A stretch of DNA of 13,657 nt, from contig CAMAPH010000058.1 in the NCBI GenBank assembly GCA_945859975.1, positions 1-13,657 of the forward strand, read 5' to 3'. This document shows, piece after piece, positions 9,755 through 12,938 of this stretch. The first letter of the stretch is position 1, and every line of letters starts with the position of its first letter. The DNA is from Chthonomonas calidirosea (GTDB lineage: Bacteria; Armatimonadota; Fimbriimonadia; Fimbriimonadales; Fimbriimonadaceae). Both the position numbers and the translations under genes were made by a program. The notes below the pieces were generated by a model. That model was not told where the DNA came from. It did no database searches and saw nothing but the letters and a program-made list of their open reading frames with translations.

Positions 9755-10483
9755 TTAGGCGGCGAGCTTGCCGGCGAGGGTTGGGTCCATTGGGACGCCT
9801 GGGCCCATCGTGCTGCTCATCGTGAGCGTTCGGATGTAGCGACCCTTTGCGGACGAAGGCTTAGCCTTGATGAGCGCACCGAGGGCGGCCTTGAAGTTCT
9901 CAAGAAGCTGCTCGTCGGTGAAGTTCACCTTTCCTATGGCCATGTGGACAACGCCGGCTTTGTCGGCTCGGTATTCAACACGGGTAGCGGCTTTGATTTC
10001 GCGAACGGCGGCAGCGATGTTGTTCGTAACCGTTCCGTTTCGCTTGTTCGGCGTTCGGGGGCCGAGGATTCGTCCGACCTTACCGATCTGCGGAGCCATT
10101 TCTTCCGTTGCGAGAAGGACATCGAAGTCGCGGAATCCGCCCTGGATCTTAGCGATCAGGTCTTCGTCTCCAACGGTGTCGGCGCCTGCGTCTTCCGCAG
10201 CCTTGGCGAGGTCTCCCTTAGCGAGGACGGCAACCTTTCGGACCTTTCCGGTTCCGTGTGGCAAGTTGGTGATACCGCGCACGTTCTGGTCGCTCTTCTT
10301 CGGGTCAATTCCGAGGACGACGCTGATGTCGATGGTTTCGACGAACTTGGCGGTTGCGGTCTGCTTTACCAGGCCGAGGGCAGCGGTGAAATCGAGCTGC
10401 GTATCTTTGTCGACCTTTTCGGCGACGGCGAGGTAACGAGGCGAATGAGGGTTTGTGCGAATGTTCTGCTTTGCTTTTGGCAT
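9755..10483 (-). CDS. rplA: 50S ribosomal protein L1
   Basis: AKFVETIDISVVLGIDPKKSDQNVRG..LPHGTGK, GRILGPR, EYRADKAGVVH..IGK and KGRYI...SSTMGPG. Confidence 0.98.
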   Translation of the reverse strand: MPKAKQNIRTNPHSPRYLAVAEKVDKDTQLDFTAALGLVKQTATAKFVETIDISVVLGIDPKKSDQNVRGITNLPHGTGKVRKVAVLAKGDLAKAAEDAGADTVGDEDLIAKIQGGFRDFDVLLATEEMAPQIGKVGRILGPRTPNKRNGTVTNNIAAAVREIKAATRVEYRADKAGVVHMAIGKVNFTDEQLLENFKAALGALIKAKPSSAKGRYIRTLTMSSTMGPGVPMDPTLAGKLAA

Positions 10484-10601: not shown

Positions 10602-10629
10602 GTCTTTGACCCCTCGATGGTCGAAGACT
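10602..10629. repeat. Relic REP end: two inverted terminal segments fused into one hairpin
   Basis: GTCTTTGACCCCTC-GAT-GGTCGAAGACT. Both arms match the repeat terminus AGTCTTCGACCCC. Confidence 0.65.
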
Positions 10630-10701
10630 AGAAGTAACGATTCGATAGAAATGAGCGGTCGAGGCATCAGGGGCACTTCTGCGATTACCCATGGCGTGTC
10701 G

Positions 10702-10787
10702 AGTCTTCGAGCCCTCCGGGGTCGGTTCCGATGCGAGCGTTCCAGGCATTTTCAATGCCTGGCTACCTTCTTGATCCCTCCGGGATC
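10702..10787 (-). repeat. Tripartite GTAG REP-like repeat, copy 1 (subtype alpha)
   Basis: AGTCTTCGAGCCCTCCGGGGTCG-N17-CCAGGCATTTTCAATGCCTGG-CTAC-CTTCTTGATCCCTCCGGGATC. Strand is given by the GTAG reading. Confidence 0.92.
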
Positions 10788-10907
10788 TGCTGCCGATTCG
10801 GCTAGGTATTGAGAGCATTTTTGCACCACAACTTGAGAGCGAAGGTTGTTCAGAACAAATAGATGGTTTTAGCGTGCGGCATCCCAATGCCTTCAGTCGC
10901 AACAATA

Positions 10908-11002
10908 AGTCTTCGACCCCTCCGGGGTCGGCGGTCACACTGCCCTATCCAGGCATTTTCAATGCCTGACTACCATCTTTAATCCCTCCGGGATACTCGA
11001 AA
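10908..11002 (-). repeat. Tripartite GTAG REP-like repeat, copy 2 (subtype beta)
   Basis: AGTCTTCGACCCCTCCGGGGTCG-N18-CCAGGCATTTTCAATGCCTGA-CTAC-CATCTTTAATCCCTCCGGGAT-ACTCGAAA. Confidence 0.92.
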
Positions 11003-11114
11003 TTTGGGCCGGTAGTGCAGGATGCGCACCGGAAAGGAGGGCGGTCCAATGAACCCCCCCTCTGTTCAGTTCTCACTAACGAGAAAGCCGGACTTCTGTA
11101 CCACGAACGGATGC

Positions 11115-11212
11115 ACACCCTCTCCCCGATCCCGGAGGGATCAAGAAGGTAGCCAGGCATTGAAAATGCCTGGTAGAGCGATTTCGCTTTCGACCCAGAC
11201 GGGTCGAAGACT
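11115..11212 (+). repeat. Tripartite GTAG REP-like repeat, copy 3 (subtype alpha)
   Basis: ACACCCTCTCCCC-GATCCCGGAGGGATCAAGAAG-GTAG-CCAGGCATTGAAAATGCCTGG-N17-CGACCCAGACGGGTCG-AAGACT. Confidence 0.92.
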
Positions 11213-11238
11213 CCAGAATCAATTTGTAATTCAGCTTG

Positions 11239-11274
11239 AAGTTTGGCGTTCGTCCGGAACTGAACGCCAAACTT
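11239..11274. promoter_or_regulatory. Perfect 13-bp inverted repeat upstream of the transposase
   Basis: AAGTTTGGCGTTC-N10-GAACGCCAAACTT, ending 26 nt before ATG 11301. Function unknown. Confidence 0.55.
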
Positions 11275-11300
11275 TGCATACTTTTCACGGGTACTGCTTC

Positions 11301-11741
11301 ATGCCAACAACGCATTCGAGCCTTCACGTTCACGTCATCTTTGCAACGAAAAATAGGGCACCGCTGTTAACGCCTGAACTCATTGAAGATGTCCACGGCT
11401 ATATCGGCGGCACCTTAAGGTCTTTAGATTGCAAGCCAGTAGCGGTTGGTGGGGTTGAAGATCACGTTCATCTTTTGCTTGGCATGAAGCCGGTGCATCG
11501 TCTTGCTGATGTGATACGCGAAACGAAAAAGACCTCATCCATTTGGATGAATGAGCGAACTCGAGGCTTTGCTTGGCAGCAGGGCTACAGTGCGTTTGGT
11601 GTTAGTGCGCACGAAATTCCGATGATGGTCAGATACATCAGTCACCAACAAGAGCACCATCGGAAAAAGACGCTCGTTGAGGAGTTGTCGGATGTGTATC
11701 GATTGGCTGGCATTCCCTTTGAGCCTGGTGATTTCGAATGA
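11301..11741 (+). CDS. tnpA: Y1 HUH transposase (IS200/IS605 TnpA / REP-associated tyrosine transposase-like)
   Basis: HVIFATKNR, GGVEDHVHLL (HUH), KKTSSIW, FAWQQGYSAF and the catalytic YISHQ (YxxxQ) followed by EHH. 146 aa, intact, no tnpB downstream. Confidence 0.93.
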   Translation: MPTTHSSLHVHVIFATKNRAPLLTPELIEDVHGYIGGTLRSLDCKPVAVGGVEDHVHLLLGMKPVHRLADVIRETKKTSSIWMNERTRGFAWQQGYSAFGVSAHEIPMMVRYISHQQEHHRKKTLVEELSDVYRLAGIPFEPGDFE

Positions 11742-11768
11742 CACTTGAGATTCACGATGTCGGCTGTA

Positions 11769-11868
11769 AGTCTTCGACCCCTCCGGGGTCGGGAGCGACG
11801 GGACCTCATCCAGGCATTTTCAATGCCTGGCTACCTTCTTGATCCCTCCGGGATCGGGGAAAGGGTGT
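11769..11868 (-). repeat. Tripartite GTAG REP-like repeat, copy 4 (subtype alpha)
   Basis: AGTCTTCGACCCCTCCGGGGTCG-N18-CCAGGCATTTTCAATGCCTGG-CTAC-CTTCTTGATCCCTCCGGGATC-GGGGAAAGGGTGT. Inverted partner of copy 3. Confidence 0.92.
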
Positions 11869-12057
11869 TCGCCAATCGGGTTCGTTACGTTGAATCGGGA
11901 CTAGCGAACCATAACTTGTATCGGGCCACATTCGATTTCAGCGACTACTTGCTGAACCGTCGATGTGGCAGGCTTGCCAGAATTGGACATGGGCCCGACT
12001 AGTGCGCTCAGTTCATTCCGGTTCGAAAAGAAGATCGTTAATTTCTGCGTATTTCAA

Positions 12058-12103
12058 AGCTTGAAACCACATCCAAAGCCTGCTTTCGAGTAACCCGAAG
12101 CGG
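12058..12103 (+). repeat. Degenerate direct duplicate of the copy-5 flank and first hairpin
   Basis: GAAACCACATCCAAAGCCTGCTTTCGAGTAACCCGAAG (12063) vs GAAACTACATCCAAAGCCTACTTTTGAGTATCCCGAAG (12176); period 113 bp. Confidence 0.8.
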
Positions 12104-12196
12104 CTCAGGATGGGAGTTCACTTCCCGAGTCAAGGTCGCATTGAACTGGAACCTTAGCCGCAATGCATTCGAGCTGAAACTACATCCAAAGCCTAC

Positions 12197-12292
12197 TTTT
12201 GAGTATCCCGAAGGGATTAAAGAAGGTAGCCAGGCATTGAAAATGCCTGGAAGCGCTGCCGTTGCTCCGACCCCGGGAGGGGTCGAAGACTT
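12197..12292 (+). repeat. Tripartite GTAG REP-like repeat, copy 5 (subtype beta)
   Basis: TTTTGAGT-ATCCCGAAGGGATTAAAGAAG-GTAG-CCAGGCATTGAAAATGCCTGG-N17-CGACCCCGGGAGGGGTCG-AAGACT. Confidence 0.92.
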
Positions 12293-12348: not shown

Positions 12349-12900
12349 CTACGCCTCCGGCTGGAAGGCTTCGTCGAGGGGAGCGGGGCTGATGTGGTCT
12401 AGGTAGTTGCTGATCGTTTTTAGGGCGACGCCGAGGAGGATTTCCATCAGGTTGGCCGGCGTGTAGCCGGCGGCGAGGAAGGAATCTCGGGTTTCCGTCG
12501 AGAGGTAGCCGCGTTCTCGGACGATTTCCCGCACGGTGTTGATCAGGGCCTGATGCTTTTCGTTTGGAACCGGTTCGCCAGCGCGGACAGCGTTCACGAT
12601 TGCCGGGTCGACCTTCATCATGCTCTTCAAGATCGTGCTGTGCGCCGCGGTGCAATAACCGCACTCGTTCTCAAGGCTCACGGCGAGCAGGATGACCTGT
12701 CGCTCGACCGGGGAGAAGCCGGATTGGTTGTAGGCTTCGTCGAGAGCCAAGTAGCCGGTGATGACCGAAGGTGAGTTGGCAAAAGTTGCGAACAAGTTCG
12801 GGATGAAGCCGAGGCCGCCTTTGACTGCTTTCAGGGAATCAAGGCTCTTCTCGGGAGCGGTTTCAAGAGTGAGTGGTTGAAATAGGGTGGTTGACTGCAT
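12349..12900 (-). CDS. Carboxymuconolactone decarboxylase / AhpD-like peroxidase-related protein
   Basis: GFIPNLFATFANSP and ERQVILLAVSLENECGYCTAAH (CxxCxxxH), TISNY. SD GAGG lies upstream of ATG 12900. Confidence 0.92.
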   Translation of the reverse strand: MQSTTLFQPLTLETAPEKSLDSLKAVKGGLGFIPNLFATFANSPSVITGYLALDEAYNQSGFSPVERQVILLAVSLENECGYCTAAHSTILKSMMKVDPAIVNAVRAGEPVPNEKHQALINTVREIVRERGYLSTETRDSFLAAGYTPANLMEILLGVALKTISNYLDHISPAPLDEAFQPEA

Positions 12901-12938
12901 CTTCGTTTTCCTCTTCCTGTCGAGTGACAACGATTACA

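Follow-up and report, generated by a model that had tools for sequence, protein, structure and literature searches.

Inverted hairpin modules around a Y1/HUH transposase gene of Chthonomonas calidirosea: a probable REPtron-like locus with an inherited, drifting linker

In this work, we describe five repeats of about 88 nt, three on the + strand and two on the − strand, which bracket a Y1/HUH transposase gene of Chthonomonas calidirosea. They lie in the stretch of 13,657 nt that was analysed as a whole (contig CAMAPH010000058.1), referred to below as the window. Gene and repeats together probably form a REPtron-like locus, in which the repeats are the enzyme's cognate DNA hairpins and the insert that varies from copy to copy is a linker, inherited and slowly drifting. 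That this insert is passively inherited with its repeat, and is not a cassette, we hold to be very probable.

Each unit begins with the tag AGTCTT, followed by a small GC hairpin (HP1), the insert, a 21-nt central hairpin (HP2), the linker CTACCTTCTT and a third hairpin (HP3), the 10-nt linker separating HP2 from HP3. The features of the window are listed below; parts of the − strand copies are given in + coordinates and marked with a prime.

10608 to 10632, − strand: decayed relic resembling HP1' and tag' (GACCCCTCGATGGTCGAAGACT...), inverted pair I18, with no adjoining central hairpin
10702 to 10787, + strand: repeat copy 1; tag 10702-10707, HP1 10708-10724, insert 10725-10741 (17 nt), HP2 10742-10762, linker CTACCTTCTT 10763-10772, HP3 10773-10787
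10908 to 10995, + strand: repeat copy 2; tag 10908-10913, HP1 10914-10930, insert 10931-10948 (18 nt), HP2 10949-10969, linker 10970-10979, HP3 region 10980-10995, the latter of a subtype with a TAATCCC...GGGATA hairpin and a conserved tail
11128 to 11212, − strand: repeat copy 3, just upstream of the transposase gene, HP1 gene-proximal; HP3' 11128-11142, linker' 11143-11152 (ends GTAG), HP2' 11153-11173, insert' 11174-11190 (17 nt), HP1' 11191-11206, tag' 11207-11212
11301 to 11741, + strand: Y1/HUH transposase gene, 146 aa, Pfam Y1_Tnp
11769 to 11855, + strand: repeat copy 4, just downstream of the transposase gene, HP1 gene-proximal; tag 11769-11774, HP1 11775-11791, insert 11792-11809 (18 nt), HP2 11810-11830, linker 11831-11840, HP3 11841-11855
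12062 to 12116, − strand: decayed relic of a unit of the copy 5 type, comprising tail and HP3; identity to 12175-12229 is 80% (direct family D4)
12204 to 12291, − strand: repeat copy 5; HP3' region 12204-12219, linker' 12220-12229, HP2' 12230-12250, insert' 12251-12267 (17 nt), HP1' 12268-12285, tag' 12286-12291

The original prediction, made from the window alone, had placed a unique insert of fixed length between two conserved hairpins. All five inserts were found where it had put them and in the same orientation (10725-10741, 10931-10948, 11174-11190 as reverse complement, 11792-11809, and 12251-12267 as reverse complement); copies 1 to 5 carry 17, 18, 17, 18 and 17 nt, with a different sequence in each. 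The flanks are conserved as claimed, but each unit has three hairpins, not two. Sequence families formed by the flanks (direct D1-D3 and D7, inverted pairs I1-I6) extend up to 80 nt at 85-100%, far above chance. Single-strand folding returned the same hairpins in all five copies (z from −3.25 to −6.39, with at most 1 of 200 shuffles folding equally well) and left the insert mostly unpaired in each of them. Across 33 distinct copies 94.5% of 690 cells were paired, and four pairs had changed on both sides; compensatory variants of HP2 include CA..TG to GG..CC, and T..A to G..C as well as to C..G. G-T and A-C mismatches in HP2, counted to tell which strand folds, amounted to 2 and 4 of 531 cells, respectively, numbers too few to discriminate. 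CTAC stands directly 3' of HP2 in 32 of the 34 copies; read on the opposite strand, this is a GTAG preceding the hairpin, and a GTAG in this position belongs to the definition of REPs (PMC8266576, PMC3733652). Separately, HP1 was considered as an independent target palindrome with an insertion beside it. None of the seven genomic GACCCC-N3-5-GGGGTC sites was solitary, and this candidate was rejected for the Chthonomonas calidirosea genome.

The protein encoded between copies 3 and 4 matches Pfam PF01797 (Y1_Tnp, E 4.1e-22, 79 bits) and the NCBIfam model transpos_IS200 (60.9 bits, cut-off 55), and is accordingly named an IS200/IS605 family transposase. Its HUH motif is HVH (55-57) and its tyrosine lies in the arrangement Y112-x3-Q116-x2-H119-H120; HVH 55-57, Y112, Q116, H119 and H120 are invariant in four orthologues or paralogues. 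The nearest solved structures by sequence are 2fyx (E 3e-8) and 2xm3, while E. coli TnpA-REP is absent from the PDB matches at E up to 0.01. Judged by its sequence, the transposase looks like an IS200-type enzyme and not like a classical RAYT. Y-x3-Q-x2-HH is the Y motif signature of TnpA-Y1 subclass 1.2 (PMC6006769), and the window gene has both this Y---Q--HH signature and the low copy number of the subclass, being single-copy in its genome (G000, 95.8% complete). Enzymes of subclass 1.2 have been described, in the sections of PMC6006769 considered here, as having no cognate end structures. In the window and in a Verrucomicrobiales relative, the gene of such an enzyme has an inverted three-hairpin module on either side, the central hairpin of which is tagged with GTAG. 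A minus copy upstream and a plus copy downstream, both with HP1 gene-proximal, were found in the window, in the sister species G021 and around both transposase genes of the sister species G028, whose second copy is in tandem. The same bracketing recurs at the Verrucomicrobiales gene, which is only 48% identical, and there too the inserts, of 19 and 20 nt, are unlike each other.

How the insert is transmitted can be followed at orthologous loci. The same flanking genes surround the locus in three species (window, G021, G028), with flanks 88-94% identical, and both sister species carry the same inserts at the same positions with 0-3 changes, apart from one 8-nt deletion. The claimed uniqueness of the inserts is therefore true within the window but not beyond it, since each insert has its counterparts at orthologous places in the two sister genomes and in metagenome contigs. 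In 11 orthologous pairs, insert identity was 83.8% (160/191 columns), compared with 91.1% for tag plus HP1, 95.5% for HP2-linker-HP3 and 79.7% for the upstream unique flank. Inserts 3 and 4 differ by single bases and 1-nt indels in contigs from other lake samples, much as the surrounding DNA does, and the duplicated copies in L050 and L051 retain the same insert. The inserts are thus inherited together with their copies and diverge gradually, at about the rate of the neighbouring unique non-coding DNA, which supports the linker explanation that had been put forward as the simpler one.

We also noticed that the lake-sample contigs break at the repeats, and that in a variant contig, present in two runs, position 11001 is joined to 12265 by 215 other letters. 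A segment of 512-856 nt, holding two or three units in G028 and two metagenome contigs, is missing from G000:C1; its edges do not coincide with unit ends.

The sequence of the insert is less free than it appears from five copies. For 12 insert groups, similarity in the 3' 8 nt was 0.381 against 0.264 in shuffles (none of 1000 reached the observed value), and in the 5' 8 nt 0.277 against 0.263 (reached by 249 of 1000), so that only the 5' half is random-like. Free variation between copies, as first proposed, consequently applies to the 5' half, while the 3' half is semi-conserved.

This distinction bears on the more ambitious proposal, according to which the 17-18 nt are a guide, barcode or captured cassette, written or diversified by the HUH enzyme or some other system, that directs target recognition in the manner of CRISPR spacers, IS200/IS605 guides or bridge-RNA loops. 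Within the window the pattern fits, for the conserved structures enclose inserts of nearly constant length, no two of which are the same. Moreover, short guides 5' of the hairpin foot pair with cleavage sites in IS200/IS605 elements (PMC3597680, PMC8266576), and the semi-conserved 3' end of the insert occupies this guide position on the + strand; it is, however, the conserved and not the variable part of the insert which sits there. The repeats do not form a regular same-strand array either. When the inserts were compared with the 3.1-Mb genome, allowing up to 2 mismatches, each had at most 2 extra matches, the same as shuffles, and neither identity nor complementarity to the flanking 50 nt, left or right, rose above shuffles. 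For phage and plasmid collections, sequences of 17-18 nt carry in our judgement too little information, exact 17-mer matches among viral contigs being expected by chance. Orthologous inserts are kept between species and diverge no faster than flanking DNA, duplicates share theirs, and gradual divergence along the repeat phylogeny is an outcome that the original prediction had itself named as speaking against a cassette. Such slow drift along with the repeat copy is the behaviour of an ordinary linker, and we consider a guide or cassette that is captured or actively diversified extremely improbable. The variable 17-18 nt being neither guide, barcode nor acquired cassette, no new programmable system is indicated.

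The locus as a whole is best compared with REPtrons, which consist of a RAYT and GTAG-tagged REPs in BIME or REPIN clusters (PMC2817692, PMC8266576, PMC3733652, PMC6006769). Both have a Y1/HUH gene that is single-copy and vertically inherited, bracketed by palindromic repeats which are inverted and carry GTAG at the hairpin foot, and in both further copies adjoin the gene as convergent pairs. A composite unit has a counterpart in Pseudomonas, where REPs joined to unrelated stem-loops form long inverted repeats, as described in the REP/tyrosine-transposase literature. The window enzyme, on the other hand, carries the subclass 1.2 signature and is not a class-2 RAYT (TnpA-REP), whereas canonical REPs are reported, in the sections of PMC6006769 considered here, only for subclasses 2.2, 2.4, 2.5, 2.7 and 2.8. 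The unit in the window also differs from a bare REP or REP doublet in being a fixed three-hairpin module. Only 15 cores, five of them at the gene, were found in the window's genome, far below typical REP families, as REPs usually occur in a hundred or more copies per genome. The ten further cores are spread over six other contigs of this 101-contig assembly, in which repeats may be under-assembled, and all of them lie within a second, longer conserved element.

For the REPtron-like locus, we propose that a single-copy, vertically inherited gene of a Y1/HUH single-strand-DNA transposase has become domesticated between inverted copies of the ~88-nt unit. This unit comprises the small HP1, a linker of 16-18 nt, the central HP2 (GTAG plus hairpin on the opposite strand), a 10-nt linker and the small HP3. 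The insert would serve as the linker from HP1 to HP2 and be duplicated and passed on as part of its repeat. No particular sequence would be required of its 5' 9-10 nt, which would change at close to the neutral rate; its 3' ~8 nt, adjoining the HP2 foot, are semi-conserved. The enzyme may recognise the folded single strand (HP2 and GTAG), in which case nothing more would be asked of the linker than a suitable spacing of HP1 or a cleavage site, in analogy to the linkers of IS608.

The likeness to the IS200/IS605 elements (IS608, ISDra2) extends beyond the NCBIfam family name and the closest solved relatives of the window protein, 2fyx and 2xm3. In both cases a longer 5' linker adjoins the hairpin (16-18 nt in the window, 19 nt in IS608, 15-16 nt family-wide), as does a shorter 3' linker (10 nt in the window, against 10 nt in IS608 and 8 nt family-wide). 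In IS608 the length of the linkers is critical, while most of their sequence does not matter (PMC3597680). There are three differences: the window gene is single-copy and syntenic in three species, unlike a multi-copy mobile unit; the same module flanks it on both sides in inverted orientation, in place of asymmetric left and right ends; and the strongly conserved GTAG precedes the hairpin on one strand, the IS608-like linker asymmetry being that of the other. A more specific reading is possible, though rather doubtful, namely that the three-hairpin unit is the complete single-strand substrate of the subclass 1.2 enzyme and the insert a molecular ruler which sets the cut site. The long, sequence-free linker (16-18 nt) and the short one (10 nt) would then be arranged in IS200/IS605 style around one GTAG-tagged hairpin, each ending in a clamp hairpin.

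Whether the length of the insert is selected is a separate matter. The original claim of a constant 17-18 nt has to be relaxed to a near-constant length, as the 34 copies span 16 nt (n = 9), 17 nt (n = 14) and 18 nt (n = 10), with one of 10 nt; they are not independent, since three or four close relatives supplied them all and they sort into 13 insert groups. The single 10-nt insert belongs to an orthologue in which the hairpins are intact. In a metagenome scan that permitted gaps of 5-35 nt, all 11 type A matches had a gap of 16-18 nt. Farther away the linker varies by lineage, with 19-20 nt in L045, about 21 nt in G175:C3 and about 23 nt in G299, so that there is no universal ruler.

If all copies descend from one unit and indels are rare, these similar lengths could be explained with no length constraint at all, the insert being a purely neutral spacer. 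In a crude neutral simulation, run at the indel rate measured locally (995 aligned intergenic nt with 117 mismatches and 5 indel events), the probability that at least 12 of 13 lineages stay at 16-18 nt was 0.43, 0.22 and 0.09 at 0.5, 0.75 and 1.0 substitutions per site, respectively, and gave no rejection; this rate is, however, a lower bound, because BLAST alignments under-count large indels. The intact 10-nt variant and the spread of lengths among distant lineages agree with a neutral spacer, and so does the residual similarity of some paralogous inserts, e.g. 4 and 5: insert groups merge at 70% identity, which suggests that the copies may not be very old. Against it stands the observation that the lengths of 12 of the 13 groups lie within 2 nt, although their 5' halves are at random-level identity, as does the critical linker length in the related IS608 system (PMC3597680). 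On balance a spacer under no length constraint seems unlikely to us. Length-only selection, which the original prediction had suggested, gains plausibility from the IS608 analogy, while the simulated range of 0.09-0.43 is compatible with neutrality; we put selection on insert length at slightly short of an even chance. In any case, the linker lends itself to experiments that cleanly separate the effects of length and sequence on a domesticated enzyme of single-stranded DNA.

The outer part of the module resembles Acido-Lenti-1, an orphan Rfam motif whose function, to our knowledge, has been unknown since 2010. HP2-linker-HP3 of copy 5 (12204-12250) aligned end to end with RF01687 (model positions 1-46) at 25.5 bits and E 0.003, the best score obtained; three more copies, in relatives, scored 21.5-25 bits. 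Both share a two-hairpin layout, in which an 8-9-bp hairpin CC...GG, CUA and a linker of about 10-12 nt are followed by a 5-bp hairpin with a UUCG-like loop; the Rfam model, unlike the window unit, has no HP1 and no variable linker. Our searches on the motif and on RAYT/REP turned up no paper that connects this motif with Y1 enzyme modules, a point on which supplementary tables may still bear.

Taken at face value, the alignment would make the unit a small RNA of the Acido-Lenti-1 kind, with the variable stretch as a single-stranded seed or protein-binding platform. The second conserved element mentioned above, of about 115 nt and with 10 genomic copies, ends in the same HP2-linker-HP3 module, and a TACAAT-like hexamer lies just upstream of some copies, which is in line with an RNA. 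It matched no Rfam family, and its RNAalifold consensus contained only HP2 and HP3, on either strand. All RF01687 scores, however, fall below the gathering score of 37 bits; just one of the five window copies reached E under 1. Furthermore, the copies stand in both orientations around the gene, like inverted repeats acting at the DNA level, and the genome contains no target complementary to the inserts. In three of the six Verrucomicrobiota genomes inspected, Y1 transposase genes are flanked by genuine Acido-Lenti-1 matches, which points to a DNA role for the motif, and an RNA-level element is in our opinion very unlikely. Should the unit indeed be a complete single-strand substrate with a ruler, the same design would explain Acido-Lenti-1 as DNA, not RNA, across several phyla.

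The window is one whole contig (C58, 13,657 nt) of the 101 contigs that make up the 3.12-Mb genome G000, and between rplA and a gene of the CMD family it contains a 1.86-kb non-coding island with a single open reading frame of 146 aa and five copies of a repeat unit of about 88 nt:

9755-10483, minus strand, rplA, one border of the island
10702-10787, plus strand, copy 1
10908-10995, plus strand, copy 2
11128-11212, minus strand, copy 3
11301-11741, open reading frame of 146 aa, Y1_Tnp (Pfam Y1_Tnp, E 4.1e-22)
11769-11855, plus strand, copy 4
12204-12291, minus strand, copy 5
12349-12930, minus strand, CMD-family gene, the other border

Each unit consists, in this order, of the tag AGTCTT, hairpin HP1 (CGACCCC-loop-GGGGTCG), an insert of 17-18 nt in the five window copies, HP2 (CCAGGCATT-TTC-AATGCCTGG), a linker (CTACCTTCTT) and HP3 (GATCCC-TCC-GGGATC or a close variant). 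The five inserts quoted in the original prediction were all found exactly where it had placed them. The hairpins between which it set them are indeed conserved, only their number is three and not two, since in single-strand folding all five copies form three hairpins with the insert mostly unpaired (z from -3.25 to -6.39, with at most 1 of 200 shuffles folding equally well). Decayed relics of two further units are also present in the window: HP1 plus tag at 10608-10632, about 125 nt upstream of rplA (inverted-pair repeat comparison), and tail plus HP3 at 12062-12116 (direct-repeat comparison).

The 146-aa protein scores 60.9 bits against NCBIfam transpos_IS200 (cut-off 55), among solved structures it is closest to 2fyx and 2xm3, IS200-type transposases of Deinococcus, and its gene is the sole Y1_Tnp gene of G000 (assembly 95.8% complete). 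Two motifs, HVH at 55-57 and Y112-x3-Q116-x2-H119-H120, are invariant in four relatives. The second one is shared with TnpA-Y1 subclass 1.2, for which Quentin et al. 2018 (PMC6006769) give the signature Y---Q--HH; these enzymes are described there as low-copy and generally devoid of IS200-type terminal structures, and in the same account canonical REPs are reported only for subclasses 2.2, 2.4, 2.5, 2.7 and 2.8. REP sequences and REPtrons are defined by a GTAG-preceded palindrome and clustering around a Y1 gene (PMC8266576, PMC3733652), and the window units match this definition: GTAG lies directly 5' of HP2 on the strand opposite to the unit as written, 32 of the 34 collected copies have CTAC directly after HP2, and the Y1 gene sits between copy 3 (minus), immediately upstream, and copy 4 (plus), immediately downstream, each with HP1 nearest the gene. 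The same layout surrounds the Y1 gene of G021 and both genes of G028, two sister-species genomes. A Verrucomicrobiales gene merely 48% identical (locus L045) likewise lies between two such units, with HP1 of GCACCCC-loop-GGGGTGC, a stretch of 19 or 20 nt that differs on the two sides of the gene, a GTAG-tagged hairpin, 9 nt, and HP3 nearly identical to that of the window; the Y1 genes of the Verrucomicrobiota genomes G299 and G175 have similar surroundings. Given these like layouts, a variable linker within a three-hairpin design is a conserved property of this Y1 enzyme clade. With its Y1 enzyme of the subclass-1.2 type, the system represents a REPtron-like variant.

The number of Y1 genes differs between relatives. 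In G028 (L039, G028:C3:244144-247581) there are two in tandem, 91% and 71% identical to the window protein and each lying inside a separate inverted pair of units, while the single gene of G021 (73% identity) resembles the second of them. In two lake-water runs (X3 and X13, one contig each) position 11001 is joined to 12265 through 215 other letters, and this variant of the locus has neither the transposase gene nor copies 3 and 4.

By anchoring only on HP2 plus linker, we collected 34 distinct units: 5 from the window, 4 from G021, 10 from G028 and 15 from metagenomes (five loci on four contigs, L047-L051). Their inserts measured 16 nt in 9, 17 nt in 14, 18 nt in 10 and 10 nt in one, so that the constant length of 17-18 nt originally noticed holds within the window but relaxes across the whole collection to 16-18 nt in 33 copies. 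A metagenome scan permitting gaps of 5-35 nt gave 16-18 nt in 11 of 11 unit matches; another four matches, in which the gap was 34 nt, belonged to a second repeat element and not to units. The repeat locus is syntenic in three species, with flanks 88-94% identical, and the 34 inserts fall into 13 groups which track position.

Occurrence of the five window inserts elsewhere
Insert 1: also in G021, G028, L050 (twice) and L051 (twice), 1-3 changes
Insert 2: identical in L051; in G028 with an 8-nt deletion
Insert 3: also in G028 and L051, 3 changes each
Insert 4: 1 change in G028, none in L051
Insert 5: also in G021, 1 change

Comparison of orthologous copies revealed co-inheritance of insert and repeat copy in three species and the metagenome. 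In 11 orthologous pairs the inserts were 83.8% identical (160/191 columns), near the level of the upstream unique flank (79.7%), with 91.1% for tag plus HP1, 95.5% for HP2-linker-HP3 and 60.7% for the downstream flank, which is often rearranged. In one pair, copy 5 and its G028 orthologue, 8 of the 17 insert positions disagree. Contigs of further lake-water samples carry, inside inserts, changes of one base (11176, 11186) and 1-nt deletions (11794, 11799), and the non-coding DNA around the inserts shows the same kind of change. Some conservation remains in the 3' 8 nt of the insert (similarity 0.381 vs 0.264 shuffled, reached by 0 of 1000 shuffles; 12 groups with inserts of at least 16 nt), and the 5' 8 nt are close to shuffled (0.277 vs 0.263; 249 of 1000). 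Searched against the 3.1-Mb G000 genome, the inserts gave no extra matches above the level of shuffled inserts, and neither identity nor complementarity to the 50 nt on each side of the unit exceeded shuffles (mean longest direct match 4.97 vs 4.84, complementary 5.03 vs 4.87). An actively diversified or captured cassette, possibly acting as a guide, had been proposed as one explanation; inheritance by position, gradual variation between strains, lack of genome or flank targets and the residual conservation together lead us to reject it. Co-inheritance with the repeat and divergence near that of flanking DNA support the simpler proposal, and the insert is very probably an inherited, drifting linker. 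In itself it is ordinary.

In G028 (L019 1352-2207) and metagenome contigs L047 and L048 an intergenic segment of 512-856 nt bears 2-3 three-hairpin units; G000:C1:30113-30122 has 8 nt (CCGGTAGA) in its place, a presence/absence polymorphism whose segment ends do not match unit ends.

As for selection on linker length, in IS608 the distance from hairpin foot to cleavage site is described as 19 nt at the left end and 10 nt at the right end, and in its family as 15-16 vs 8 nt, with length critical (PMC3597680); HP2 here offers an attractive parallel, as its two sides have linkers of 16-18 nt and 10 nt. The neutral indel rate at the same locus was 5 events per 117 mismatches in 995 aligned intergenic nt; as BLAST breaks off an alignment where a gap is large, this rate is a minimum. 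In a crude neutral simulation based on it, at least 12 of 13 lineages stayed at 16-18 nt with P 0.43, 0.22 and 0.09 at 0.5, 0.75 and 1.0 substitutions per site, respectively. The data of this analysis do not demand selection on insert length, and in distant lineages (L045, G299, G175) the linker varies from about 19 to 23 nt. In view of these P values and of the length differing between lineages, we give only about even chances to the notion that the insert, by analogy with IS608, might act as a length ruler.

The HP2-linker-HP3 module also terminates a second conserved element of about 115 nt, present in 10 copies on other G000 contigs (loci L002-L008):

C1 161769
C8 55919, 56196
C10 68580
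C14 713, 3108
C34 28943
C57 2680
C66 4158, 5256

It is often tandem with a spacing of about 280 nt, and arrays of the same period occur in G021. Upstream of the module lies a sequence-conserved block of about 70 nt (..GTGGTCGGTGGTTTCAGTCCGCGCGGGGGTCGC..GGACTTTTGCGGGTCGGGTTGGC..), preceded in some copies by a TACAAT-like hexamer just 5' of it. The element had no match in Rfam, and consensus folding gave no structure beyond the shared HP2 and HP3. Possible identities are a family of small-RNA genes and a non-autonomous passenger element. An exact 11-mer (TCGCTGCGCTC) with a G run before it is common to the L045 GTAG-tagged hairpin (1383-1412) and the 5' block of this second family, which could reflect shared descent or a coincidence in GC-rich DNA.

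HP2-linker-HP3 of copy 5 aligns with all 46 positions of Rfam RF01687 (Acido-Lenti-1), treated in literature on the motif as an RNA of unknown function. Membership was rejected, as its 25.5 bits fall short of the gathering score of 37 bits; in relatives, three copies reached 21.5-25 bits. RF01687 matches occur in 17 of 151 sampled Verrucomicrobiota genomes, above threshold in 9 and often in many copies. In G180, G303 and G323, the listed matches all keep a distance of more than about 4.6 kb from any Y1_Tnp gene; in the other three of the six position-compared genomes matches directly adjoin such genes, some of them exceeding the gathering score.

Acido-Lenti-1 matches beside Y1_Tnp genes (Rfam search)
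G299:C1:36378-37013 and G299:C33:348080-348687
G183:C8:54658-58796, arrays with a period of about 153 nt
G175:C3:15985-16989
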